NCBI GenBank assembly: GCA_035249365.1
Contig: DATFGP010000022.1
Coordinates: 192,013-256,012 of the forward strand
DNA: 64,000 nt
Direction: 5' to 3'
DNA from: Pyrinomonadaceae bacterium
Lineage (GTDB): Bacteria > Acidobacteriota > Blastocatellia > Pyrinomonadales > Pyrinomonadaceae
Shown: positions 42,410-43,465 of the stretch, in pieces
How the letters are laid out: each line of letters begins with the position of its first letter
Numbering within the stretch: position 1 is the stretch's first letter
Notes under the pieces: generated by a model
What the model was told of the DNA's origin: nothing
The model's input: the letters and a program-made list of their open reading frames with translations, nothing else
Databases searched by the model: none
Translations under genes and position numbers: made by a program

Positions 42410-43465
42410 ATGAGTTCCAAGACAAGATTTCTTGATCTAGCCATGCACGGCGGATGCTCGAAGAAGGTTGGCGGCAAGGATTTACAAAGACTGCTTTCCA
42501 ATTTAGCTGACTCCGAAACGGATCACCAATTTTCTGAAATTAAAGGCTGGCTGGATTTTGGCCTTTATGAGCGTAAAGATGAGGCTCTAATAAGTAATGT
42601 TGATATTGTTCTGCCGATGGTTCCTAATCCTGCCGACTTCGGGGAAATTGTTGTTGCACATGTCTTGAGCGACATTTACACATCTGGAGCAAAGCCGCTT
42701 TTCGGGCTTAACATCCTCGGCGTTCAACAAACCATTGATTTAAGCAGTAACGGCAATGACATAAAGTTAATGCTGGCATCTGCTGCTAAAAAGCTACACA
42801 GCGCAGGAGCGCAACTCGTCGGCGGGCACTCGATTGGAAATCAATCTGACCTTTATTACGGTCTAGCAGTGTTCGGGATAATTAACAAAGATTCGTTAGT
42901 AACGAACAAAGGGGCCAAAACAGGTGATGCTTTAGTCCTAACAAAACCGCTTGGAACCAGCATCGCCTCAAAACTATGGAAGAGTAATCATCACCTTGAG
43001 AACGATTTCCAAGATGTGTTAACAGGTATGAAGCAACTCAATGACATAGCAGCAGAAGAAATGCTTAAAGGCCAAGCTCACGCTTGTACTGACATCACAG
43101 GTTTTGGCTTGCTCGGCCATACACATAATCTGCTTCGTGCGAGTGAGGCAGCTTGCGTCATCAACGTCGAGAACTTGCCCATTTATGATTCGGTGCAAGA
43201 CTTCGGCGGAGCTGAGTATCAAACGATGATTTTCGATAAGAATAAAGAATACGTCGTTGACTACGTAAATGACGATGATGTAGAGCTAACTTCATTGCTT
43301 GATGTTGTTATTTATGATGCTCAGGTTTCCGGCGGTCTACTCGTAAGTCTTACTCATGAGGAAGCTGGCAAATATGTCGAACGATTGAGAGACAGAGGAG
43401 TTACAGCATCTATTATTGGCGAGGTAGTAGAAGGTCAAGCGGGGTATATAACGCTTTTGCCATAA
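42410..43465 (+). CDS. selD: Selenide, water dikinase (selenophosphate synthetase), Cys-type
   Basis: Collinear with E. coli SelD as I remember it: N-terminal 'HGGCSKKV' (compare 'HGAGCGCKI'), 'DFGEIVVAHVLSDIYTSGAKP', 'GGHSI', 'LTKPLGT', 'TDITGFGLLGH' and 'DAQVSGGLL'. Confidence 0.85.
   Translation: MSSKTRFLDLAMHGGCSKKVGGKDLQRLLSNLADSETDHQFSEIKGWLDFGLYERKDEALISNVDIVLPMVPNPADFGEIVVAHVLSDIYTSGAKPLFGLNILGVQQTIDLSSNGNDIKLMLASAAKKLHSAGAQLVGGHSIGNQSDLYYGLAVFGIINKDSLVTNKGAKTGDALVLTKPLGTSIASKLWKSNHHLENDFQDVLTGMKQLNDIAAEEMLKGQAHACTDITGFGLLGHTHNLLRASEAACVINVENLPIYDSVQDFGGAEYQTMIFDKNKEYVVDYVNDDDVELTSLLDVVIYDAQVSGGLLVSLTHEEAGKYVERLRDRGVTASIIGEVVEGQAGYITLLP

Follow-up and report, generated by a model that had tools for sequence, protein, structure and literature searches.

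A divergent SelD paralogue forms the last gene of a rare, mobile cassette with a Nudix hydrolase and a PLD-fold protein

The stretch of DNA analysed here (hereafter the window) is the whole 64 kb taken from contig DATFGP010000022.1 of a Pyrinomonadaceae metagenome-assembled genome (MAG). It carries a selD-like gene without any of the usual selenium-utilisation genes around it. We show that this 'orphan' selD is the last gene of a rare, mobile and conserved cassette with the order Nudix hydrolase, phospholipase D (PLD)-fold protein, SelD paralogue. In the window, gene 1 (40723..41253, +) encodes a Nudix hydrolase of 176 amino acids (aa), identified by Pfam NUDIX and an intact REx2EE Nudix box. 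Gene 2 (41409..42386, +) encodes a membrane-anchored middle protein of 325 aa if the ATG at 41409 is used; the longest open reading frame (ORF) begins at a TTG at 41370 (338 aa). Gene 3 (42410..43465, +) encodes a divergent SelD-family enzyme of the PurM superfamily (351 aa), recognised by TIGR00476. An earlier, sequence-only reading had described selD as sitting beside the Nudix gene in a foreign-looking island. The two genes are not directly adjacent, as the gene of 325-338 aa separates them. The foreign appearance is borne out by composition: the GC content of the island is 43.4% compared with 58-60% in its flanks, and the GC content at third codon positions (GC3) is 0.41-0.45 in its genes compared with 0.73-0.82 in the neighbouring genes.

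The three co-oriented genes are located within the nuo operon, on the same strand, between nuoF (complex I 51 kDa subunit; 39372..40697, +) on the left and nuoG (43478..45787, +) on the right. Both flanking genes were assigned from their ORFs and from synteny with two other contigs (L002 and L009), where the counterparts of nuoF match Pfam Complex1_51K and NADH_4Fe-4S. The window NuoF is 86% identical to that of L002 and 74% to that of L009. Only 25 nt separate the nuoF stop from the Nudix start codon and 12 nt the SelD stop from the nuoG start. Since it lies on the same strand inside the nuo operon, the cassette is presumably co-transcribed with complex I. A search for flanking repeats around the cassette found none, and promoter-like and terminator-like sites in this region show no excess over the shuffled expectation.

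The attribution of gene 3 to SelD, made initially from the letters alone, is confirmed by family searches. The protein has the two-domain architecture of the PurM superfamily (Pfam AIRS, 2.2e-14; AIRS_C, 2.1e-19) and scores 240.8 bits on the NCBIfam model TIGR00476 selD (cut-off 125). Its top solved relatives are the SelDs of A. aeolicus (2.4e-42) and E. coli (6.7e-29), and an identical protein at NCBI (HJR07316.1, from a Pyrinomonadaceae MAG) is annotated as SelD by PGAP. The stricter SelD equivalog models are not reached (NF002098, 182.5 against a cut-off of 299; NF010705, 120.7 against 291).

To describe the active site, residue statistics were compiled from 61 sequences of the clade to which cassette-linked SelDs belong and from 70 classical SelDs. 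The catalytic context had been reported as retained, and for the N-terminal loop this is correct. The motif 'GGCSKK' corresponds to codons 14-19 (in 'HGGCSKK') and contains the Cys-x-x-Lys of the glycine-rich N-terminal loop (codons C16-S-K-K19; 42455..42466, +), with C16 and K19 aligned with E. coli C17 and K20. The Cys is present in 93% and the Lys in 97% of the clade, the remaining members being N-terminally incomplete, and no full-length member has selenocysteine (Sec) at the Cys position. The metal- and ATP-binding aspartates D49, D65, D88 and D228 (E. coli D51, D68, D91 and D227) are conserved at 98-100% in both clades, which also have in common the GGH motif, K178, N210, TDxTGFG and H236. 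The description fails at another position. E. coli Asn87, reported as essential for catalysis (PMC4210487, citing the E. coli structure paper), is replaced in the window protein by His84 (42659..42661, +; codon checked). This replacement defines the clade: the position is His in 61/61 cassette-clade sequences and Asn in 70/70 classical SelDs. Further clade-specific residues are G183S, W189, D201 and T301V. Since the defining Asn87 is missing, we call gene 3 a SelD-family paralogue and, judging from its residues, not a bona fide selenide, water dikinase.

Gene 1 matches Pfam NUDIX with an E-value of 4.4e-16. Its closest solved relatives are ADP-ribose pyrophosphatases (Mycobacterium tuberculosis 1mk1, 1.8e-19, followed by NudF, the Thermus thermophilus ADPRase and NUDT5), and residues R86, E87, E91 and G93 of the Nudix box are invariant in six cassette copies. 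The segment REFREETGF is preserved in full, and the first spacer is one residue longer than in the consensus Gx5Ex7REUxEExGU. The cut-off of the NudE equivalog is not reached (52 against 169 bits). From these relationships gene 1 can be classed as a Nudix hydrolase of the ADP-ribose/ADP-sugar pyrophosphatase type.

The middle protein has no full-length family in Pfam or NCBIfam and its NCBI name is simply 'hypothetical protein VJ842_08665 [Pyrinomonadaceae bacterium]'. A word-index homologue search with the full protein returned only two proteins, and the profile used in the scans described below rests on eight aligned copies from cassette loci. The full-length AlphaFold2 model (pLDDT 85.7) comprises a helix at 17-40, a helix at 51-129 (the second transmembrane (TM) segment and a stalk) and a globular domain at 132-325. 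The predicted layout is thus two N-terminal TM helices, a long helical stalk and a C-terminal PLD-fold domain. The predicted TM hairpin (41475..41636, +) consists of VLRLLGILGLGVLGSWLAG and AIPWILAIFFFITTSLLYL, identified by a Kyte-Doolittle scan, with the translation checked. Basic residues occur on both sides of the hairpin, from which we infer that the C-terminal domain is cytoplasmic. In the same type of scan, N-terminal TM segments are found in 20 of 28 family members, while the other eight are soluble short forms of about 215 aa.

The conserved C-terminal 190 aa are predicted to adopt a PLD-type fold (pLDDT 92.3), which in the window corresponds to a domain of 193 aa (41805..42383, +). 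Its nearest structural matches include the non-catalytic FAM83 and ligand-binding TrmB domains. The catalytic motif of PLD enzymes, HxK(x)4D(x)6G(S/T)xN, is degenerate here, its positions having been assigned from sequence and secondary structure and not by residue-level superposition. At the His position the window protein has Q121, while Q, H, K, Y, P, A or V occur there in homologues; the Lys corresponds to an invariant R123 and GSxN to GHY. Conserved features of the domain are GxGxSKW, Y116/H118/P120/R123 (YxHxPxFR), G135-H136-Y137, S145, W159 and W173, and K45, R123 and D128 are kept although the catalytic His position varies. The pattern suggests that the domain is probably of a non-catalytic, phosphate-binding type. 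We had considered the protein as a phosphatidyl or phosphoryl transferase, a reading that was downgraded because the nucleophilic His is not conserved. The domain appears to be distantly related to DUF5919 (PF19319): the window domain scores 12.4 bits (E = 0.14; gathering threshold 23.5), E-values of 1 or less are obtained for 21 of the 28 cassette homologues (the lowest being 1.3e-7), and several multi-domain relatives score above the threshold.

Proteins related to the SelD or to the middle protein were looked up on their contigs, and profile scans were made of genome and metagenome collections. Sixteen distinct loci, whose flanks are unrelated, carry the trio in the same order and on a single strand (the window, L002, L003/4, L005/6, L008=L011, L009, L010, L012, L014, L020, L021, L022, L024, L025, L027/28 and L031), and three short contigs (L026, L029 and L030) are consistent with it. 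The hosts include Acidobacteriota and Solirubrobacterales and belong to at least two phyla. Besides the Pyrinomonadaceae MAG, the cassette is carried by GCA_043780735.1, GCA_963808575.1, the Solirubrobacterales MAGs DASWQL01, DASXMH01 and DATEOT01, and Ga0400701_000001, a contig of 1.88 Mb. Cassette ORFs overlap by 4-26 bp in L008, L010, L021, L022 and L024. Three acidobacterial contigs have the cassette in the nuo operon; in other loci it is flanked by hutU, uvrA-like, dnaG or ppdK regions. In 9 of 10 loci the GC content of the cassette is lower than that of either 6-kb flank. Pairwise identities correlate among the three proteins (Spearman 0.59-0.72; 0 of 2000 permutations reach the observed values). 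The cassette is therefore inherited as a unit and is horizontally mobile. A location in the nuo operon might be taken to be functionally meaningful, but we have rejected this idea because most cassette copies are found in unrelated contexts.

The cassette is also rare. The scan with the middle-protein profile found the gene 2 family in only 4 of 185,579 species genomes, three Solirubrobacterales with the trio and one Thermoanaerobaculia with a different fusion; the SelD protein alone, used as a query against the same 185,579 genomes, gave no match. No fourth universal component was found. The only additional gene is a facultative one of 154 aa, resembling HAD/P-type ATPases (DLNGT ... GNGxND), which is present in 5 of the 16 loci (after SelD in four and first in L010) and absent from the window.

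Three cassettes share the nuoF/nuoG site: that of the window and those of L002 (8464-11065) and L009 (8474-10942). The identity of the window SelD to those of L002 and L009 (79% and 63%) and of its Nudix to that of L002 (76%) is in the range shown by the Nuo proteins (56-86%), which suggests that the cassette is old in the lineage of the window and has apparently been inherited vertically at this site. The middle gene is the fastest evolving of the three, with 45% and 39% identity to L002 and L009. In L009 (8358-10942) both the Nudix and the SelD genes are split by frameshifts, the Nudix being matched from aa 40 only and the SelD lying in two frames (around 10031-10068). These frameshifts are due to decay of the cassette or to indel errors of long reads; on this contig, several nuo genes are fragmented as well. 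The three nuoF/nuoG cassettes are 7-15 GC points below their flanks despite their apparent vertical inheritance, a lasting lack of amelioration.

The sequence-only reading had also stated that no selenium partner gene is in view, and this proved correct. No tRNA of any kind was detected in the 64 kb window with ARAGORN, and Rfam revealed neither tRNA-Sec nor SECIS elements there, its only match being a SAM-II riboswitch. Among the 43 window ORFs scanned with Pfam and NCBIfam there is no SelA, SelB, SelU/rhodanese, XdhC/YqeB, YqeC, EgtB-like SenA or SenB glycosyltransferase. Ten of these ORFs have no family match (one of them scanned at E <= 0.001 only), and the family scans did not include about 11 further picked ORFs: three of these have a length of some 100 aa, and the others are nuoA-C and D-H/K, whose names come from synteny or sequence. 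The scanned genes include etfAB, fabF/H, plsX, a thiolase, fpg, DPP-IV, thiG, zapA, nuo genes and GCS2, among others. For those cassette loci that have lists of gene families, the flanks of 8-10 kb contain no selenium-trait gene either, nor does any transporter, reductase, YedE/YedF or other selenium-handling gene recur beside the cassette.

Genes for selenium utilisation are often unlinked from selD. One has to consider an ordinary housekeeping SelD with partners (selA/selB/selC, selU, yqeB/yqeC or senA/senB) encoded in other parts of the genome and with no relation to the neighbouring Nudix and middle genes. The PGAP name and the passing of TIGR00476 agree with this. A neighbour-joining tree of 127 sequences, in which classical references but no SenC sequence were included, does not. 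Placed against classical SelDs, as had been suggested when the gene was first noted, all cassette-linked SelDs fall into one clade of their own together with two basal members (P0022 and P0023), while the classical SelDs, including the references that lie beside selA/selB (Roseomonas, Streptomyces) or fdnG (Phyllobacterium), are on the opposite side of the tree. This separation, the His at the Asn87 position throughout the clade, scores below the cut-off of both stricter equivalog models, a composition foreign to the host and, above all, a trio conserved and co-diverging in 16 loci of at least two phyla leave a housekeeping SelD very improbable. We rate it low because the trio is a conserved cassette and the SelD a distinct paralogue. 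For the pairing itself, two explanations had been offered, a different selenophosphate- or thiophosphate-dependent chemistry or simply scattered genes. Because the pairing recurs in 16 loci and the three genes co-diverge, with a SelD clade of their own, a different chemistry is favoured and the scattered option is not.

The basal member P0022 (L007, 10001-12239), which is 50% identical and likewise has His in place of Asn87, is accompanied by neither the Nudix nor the PLD-like gene. It is preceded by a gene for an NB-ARC/WD40 protein of 1419 aa and convergently oriented to one for a NifS-like class-V aminotransferase, and may represent the pre-cassette state of this SelD lineage. The plasmid-borne SelDs of Roseomonas, Rhodococcus, Phyllobacterium, Streptomyces and Burkholderia are Sec-trait SelDs, belong to an unrelated odd cluster or are in unannotated records. 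One other non-canonical selD neighbourhood was observed on the mobilizable, linear plasmid pN1 of Rhodococcus aetherivorans (NZ_CP106984.1; L016, 3754-7950). Here overlapping ORFs encode members of the acyl-CoA dehydrogenase family, SelD, the adenylyl/cytidylyltransferase family and the alkaline phosphatase family, and the SelD falls within the classical clade.

Several cassette loci have neighbours that are clearly of a mobile or defence type. These are L010 (GCA_963808575.1, CAWEHC010000036.1), with a phage-type integrase, a KAP NTPase, an IS element and HepT/MNT; L021, with a TrwC relaxase and PIN/MazE; and L024, with an integrase, a PIN gene and a ParA-like gene. The operon of L010 (7414-11023) has the order HAD-like (154 aa), TIR, Nudix, short soluble PLD-like protein (217 aa), SelD. 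Its TIR gene, which is embedded in the operon, encodes 294 aa in which an unknown domain is fused to a TIR of the CAP12/Pycsar type. L010 is the one examined operon without the two-transmembrane (2TM) part and with a TIR gene. Given the gene order and the short PLD-like protein, the separate TIR thus appears exactly where the 2TM part is missing.

Other N-terminal domains are seen in proteins more distantly related to the middle protein. A profile search of 1.84 billion cluster representatives retrieved 1063 relatives of the PLD-fold domain. Among the domains attached to their N-termini are TIR (P0169, P0173), DUF4062 (P0215, P0225), patatin (P0244), PNP_UDP_1 (P0206), PRTase-CE (P0166) and a weakly matched helix-turn-helix (HTH; P0265, P0287). 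One relative lies in a five-gene run with a PLD-fold domain and without SelD (L013, 127-4342; Thermoanaerobaculia MAG DASVEF010000075.1), adjoined by an IS200-like transposase. The run encodes, in order, a cytidylyltransferase-like protein, a cytidylate-kinase-like protein (400 aa), a phosphoribosyltransferase (PRTase), a guanylate-kinase-like protein and a fusion of a TIR-like/nucleoside-deoxyribosyltransferase-like domain to a PLD-like domain. It looks like a separate, undescribed nucleotide-centred conflict system.

In CBASS, Pycsar, Thoeris and type III CRISPR signalling, the standard effector design joins a ligand-sensing domain to a module of the 2TM, TIR, patatin or nucleoside phosphorylase (PNP) type. 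By analogy, the 2TM forms (20 of 28), the domains of the relatives and the L013 fusion would correspond to this arrangement of a ligand-sensing domain with an exchangeable effector. Our preferred reading, to which we give a little less than an even chance, is that the cassette is an uncharacterised conflict or defence module whose SelD paralogue and Nudix would produce or convert a small phospho-compound, to be sensed by the PLD-fold domain of a membrane effector. We favour it because relatives of this domain have swapped effectors, because the cassette fits such systems in its distribution, its composition and its neighbours, and because of the fast-evolving middle gene and the TIR of L010. 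The obligatory middle gene, the change of Asn87 to His and this conflict/defence context had all escaped the sequence-only reading.

The cassette would then be a module of the anti-phage or abortive-infection type, built like the signalling immune systems. The SelD paralogue would spend ATP to produce a small phospho-compound, possibly selenophosphate, a thiophosphate-like compound or an ATP-derived product altered by the Asn-to-His change. The ADPRase-like Nudix would supply the precursor or clear the product, as might the HAD-type phosphatase in some loci. The PLD-fold domain would act as a sensor of a phosphate or nucleotide ligand and be joined to an effector that can be exchanged (in the window a 2TM hairpin that inserts into the membrane; in relatives TIR, patatin, nucleoside phosphorylase or PRTase), and the sensed compound would gate the membrane effector. 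The identity of the ligand, and the involvement of selenium at all, is speculative. In a more specific form of the proposal, the cassette would serve immunity or a stress response: the SelD-type enzyme would make a small inorganic or nucleotide-derived phospho-anion as second messenger (selenophosphate, thiophosphate or a related ATP-derived product), a catalytically dead PLD-fold receptor would read it and gate the membrane or TIR effector, and Nudix and HAD would reset the signal. This version is unlikely. If true, it would be the first SelD chemistry outside selenium incorporation and would provide a new class of signal synthase and of sensor domain.

A number of observations weigh against a defence module. 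No cassette protein matches a validated defence system in PADLOC, the only hit being a weak one of the Nudix to the candidate PDC-S07. The middle gene was not found on PLSDB plasmids, INPHARED phages or IMG/VR contigs. Several copies lie among housekeeping genes (the nuo operon, hutU, dnaG/recO), and the nuoF/nuoG copy has been kept vertically while the Nuo proteins diverged to 56-86%, which is unusually stable for a defence island. Eight of the 28 middle proteins lack any effector part and the short-form locus L024 has no obvious separate effector. The effector fusions belong to more distant relatives (profile E-values of 1e-22 to 5e-54) and were read from proteins, not loci. The basal P0022 occurs without cassette partners, next to a NifS-like gene, in a setting like that of a metabolic SelD. 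Retention of Cys-x-x-Lys, as a sequence feature, argues for a preserved selenide or sulfide chemistry. Finally, we know of no immune signal that depends on a trace element and of no SelD-family enzyme that acts as a signal synthase.

Because of these points we keep alive the possibility, which we consider on the unlikely side, that the cassette specifies a fifth SelD-dependent selenium or sulfur trait. The SelD would make selenophosphate or thiophosphate, the PLD-fold protein would be a membrane carrier or transferase for the (seleno)phosphoryl group or an ADP-linked acceptor, and the Nudix, with or without HAD, would supply or trim a nucleotide-linked substrate. The product would be an undescribed seleno- or thio-metabolite, lipid or cofactor. 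Conservation of both Cys-x-x-Lys and the four metal-binding aspartates, and a TIGR00476 score above the cut-off, are in line with such a trait; the replacement of the essential Asn87 is not. In favour of the trait, genes overlapping selD were the basis on which the sen cluster was discovered (bioRxiv 10.1101/2022.04.13.486033) and are found here too, the facultative HAD-like phosphatase extends the run of phospho-chemistry enzymes, the class-V aminotransferase beside P0022 is a typical selenium or sulfur donor, and the cassette is stably kept within the complex I operon. Against it, no selenium-handling gene such as a transporter, a reductase or YedE/YedF recurs beside the cassette, and the cassette is extremely rare, patchy and of low GC, with mobile-element, TIR and toxin-antitoxin neighbours. 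The middle protein fits poorly, since its PLD-fold domain is without the catalytic His and has relatives fused to immune-type effector domains, and its N-terminal part is freely gained, lost and swapped. A point for the trait is that orphan SelDs implying unknown traits are already on record (PMC5029168).

A conflict module might also operate without any diffusible signal. In this case SelD and Nudix would be toxic effectors that drain nucleotides (ATP to AMP and phosphate; compounds of the NAD/ADP-ribose type), and the PLD-fold/2TM protein would regulate or anchor them, much like the pairs of toxin-antitoxin or abortive-infection systems. The evidence from context is shared with the signalling module. 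SelD chemistry cleaves ATP to AMP, and the change of Asn87 to His could uncouple this hydrolysis from selenide. A precedent for a Nudix completing nucleotide depletion downstream of an ATP-modifying enzyme is provided by type III CRISPR CAAD (reviewed in PMC13276650). Such a module would, however, not need to conserve the selenide-handling Cys-x-x-Lys loop, a middle protein combining sensor and effector fits a ligand-gated effector better, and toxicity of the cassette would be a supposition. We regard this explanation as rather improbable.

Comparison with known systems indicates where the cassette differs. Its SelD shares with the classical SelDs (E. coli, A. aeolicus; TIGR00476) the two-domain architecture, the Cys-x-x-Lys loop, Asp51/68/91/227, GGH, Lys178 and TDxTGFG, at about 27-37% identity. 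The cassette clade departs from them in having His for Asn87, Ser for Gly183, Trp189, Asp201 and Val for Thr301; moreover, none of its members lies beside selA, selB or selU, and almost all come after a Nudix and a PLD-fold gene. The senABC cluster, whose SenC is a SelD homologue, is similar in being a compact three-gene cassette with ORFs overlapping selD. In contrast to senABC, there is no EgtB-like SenA (DinB_2/FGE-sulfatase) or TIGR04348 SenB within the trio of any annotated cassette locus, the partners being Nudix and PLD-fold proteins; SenA and SenB were found neither in the window nor beside the trio in annotated cassette loci. The only FGE-sulfatase match near a SelD of the clade is a kinase fusion in L007, which lacks the trio.

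Organisms with an orphan SelD, the YqeB/YqeC trait and the crenarchaeal SelD-like family likewise have a SelD homologue without nearby Sec or selenouridine machinery, and orphan SelDs pointing to unknown traits have been documented (PMC5029168). The partners proposed for them are XdhC-like YqeB, YqeC, an isochorismatase-like protein, an ABC ATPase and a cysteine desulfurase (PMC2276186, PMC2432076, PMC5029168, PMC4210487); unlike the cassette, these include no Nudix and no PLD-fold protein. The crenarchaeal family keeps Asn87 (PMC4210487), whereas the cassette clade does not, and the match of the cassette SelD to TIGR04369, which describes crenarchaeal SelD-like fusions, is weak (89 bits against a cut-off of 700).

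Signalling defence systems (CBASS Cap14/Cap15, Pycsar PycTM/PycTIR, type II Thoeris 2TM-Macro, type III CRISPR CARF effectors, and CAAD plus Nudix) resemble the cassette in being small operons in which nucleotide-acting enzymes accompany an effector-sensor protein. The cassette is, like them, patchy, mobile and of low GC, with a TIR of the Pycsar/CAP12 type inside one operon. Unlike them, the core trio includes no CD-NTase, nucleotide cyclase, TIR signal synthase or Cas10; a degenerate PLD fold takes the place of a SAVED, CARF, cNMP-binding, STING or Macro domain as putative sensor, and the enzyme is a SelD paralogue. In PADLOC-DB v2 neither the SelD nor the middle protein has a match and no system model was matched; the Nudix matches the candidate PDC-S07 weakly (8.4e-7). 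In comparison with the PLD pseudo-enzymes and ligand binders (the TrmB sugar-binding domain, FAM83 DUF1669) and with DUF5919, the cassette domain has its own motifs (GxGxSKW, YxHxPxFR, GHY), is joined to a 2TM hairpin and stalk and not to an HTH, and is always encoded between Nudix and SelD genes. In the library searched, no paper links SelD with Nudix, DUF5919 or anti-phage defence, and nothing relevant on PRTase-CE was found. The cassette thus matches no described selenium pathway or defence system. It is a new and fixed operonic partnership of a SelD-family enzyme, with an architecture that resembles signalling defence but is built from different parts.

Other features of the window and its relatives were recorded during the annotation. 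The nuo operon of the window contains a Redoxin/AhpC-TSA gene (52223-52825, +) between two Proton_antipo_M subunit genes, and that of L009 carries the accessory genes TonB_C, SIMPL, SnoaL_2 and Thx (4365-6943 and 10962-11090) in among its nuo genes. With these other inserts in nuo operons, the SelD cassette is thus one of several passengers. The SAM-II riboswitch (SAM_alpha, RF00521; 21525-21600, +; 41.2 bits, gathering score 36) lies just upstream of a gene for a fused homocysteine S-methyltransferase/MTHFR (ORF 21757-23652). The SAM_alpha family is named for the Alphaproteobacteria, and the host here is an acidobacterium. A secreted-type protein of 1648 aa with PD40, Big_2 and Lamin-tail domains is encoded at 24039-28985 (+), and a relative of 3071 aa lies upstream in L002. 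Additional ORFs of low GC3 (59951-60520, +, 0.42; 29005-29382, +, 0.44; 13946-15015, -, 0.51-0.59; compared with about 0.75 for the window) may be foreign or spurious; those that were scanned have no Pfam match.

SelD is taken as the universal sign that an organism uses selenium, and each TIGR00476 match is counted as such in genome surveys. As members of the cassette clade pass this model, their hosts would be mis-scored as 'orphan SelD' organisms in selenium-trait censuses. The cassette is a clonable three-gene unit of about 2.7 kb and poses the question whether SelD chemistry has been recruited for an immune signal, for nucleotide depletion or for a fifth selenium or sulfur pathway. Regardless of the SelD question, the degenerate PLD-fold domain, with roughly a thousand sequence clusters and with TIR, patatin, PNP, PRTase and 2TM fusions, is a candidate for a new sensor domain of conflict systems.

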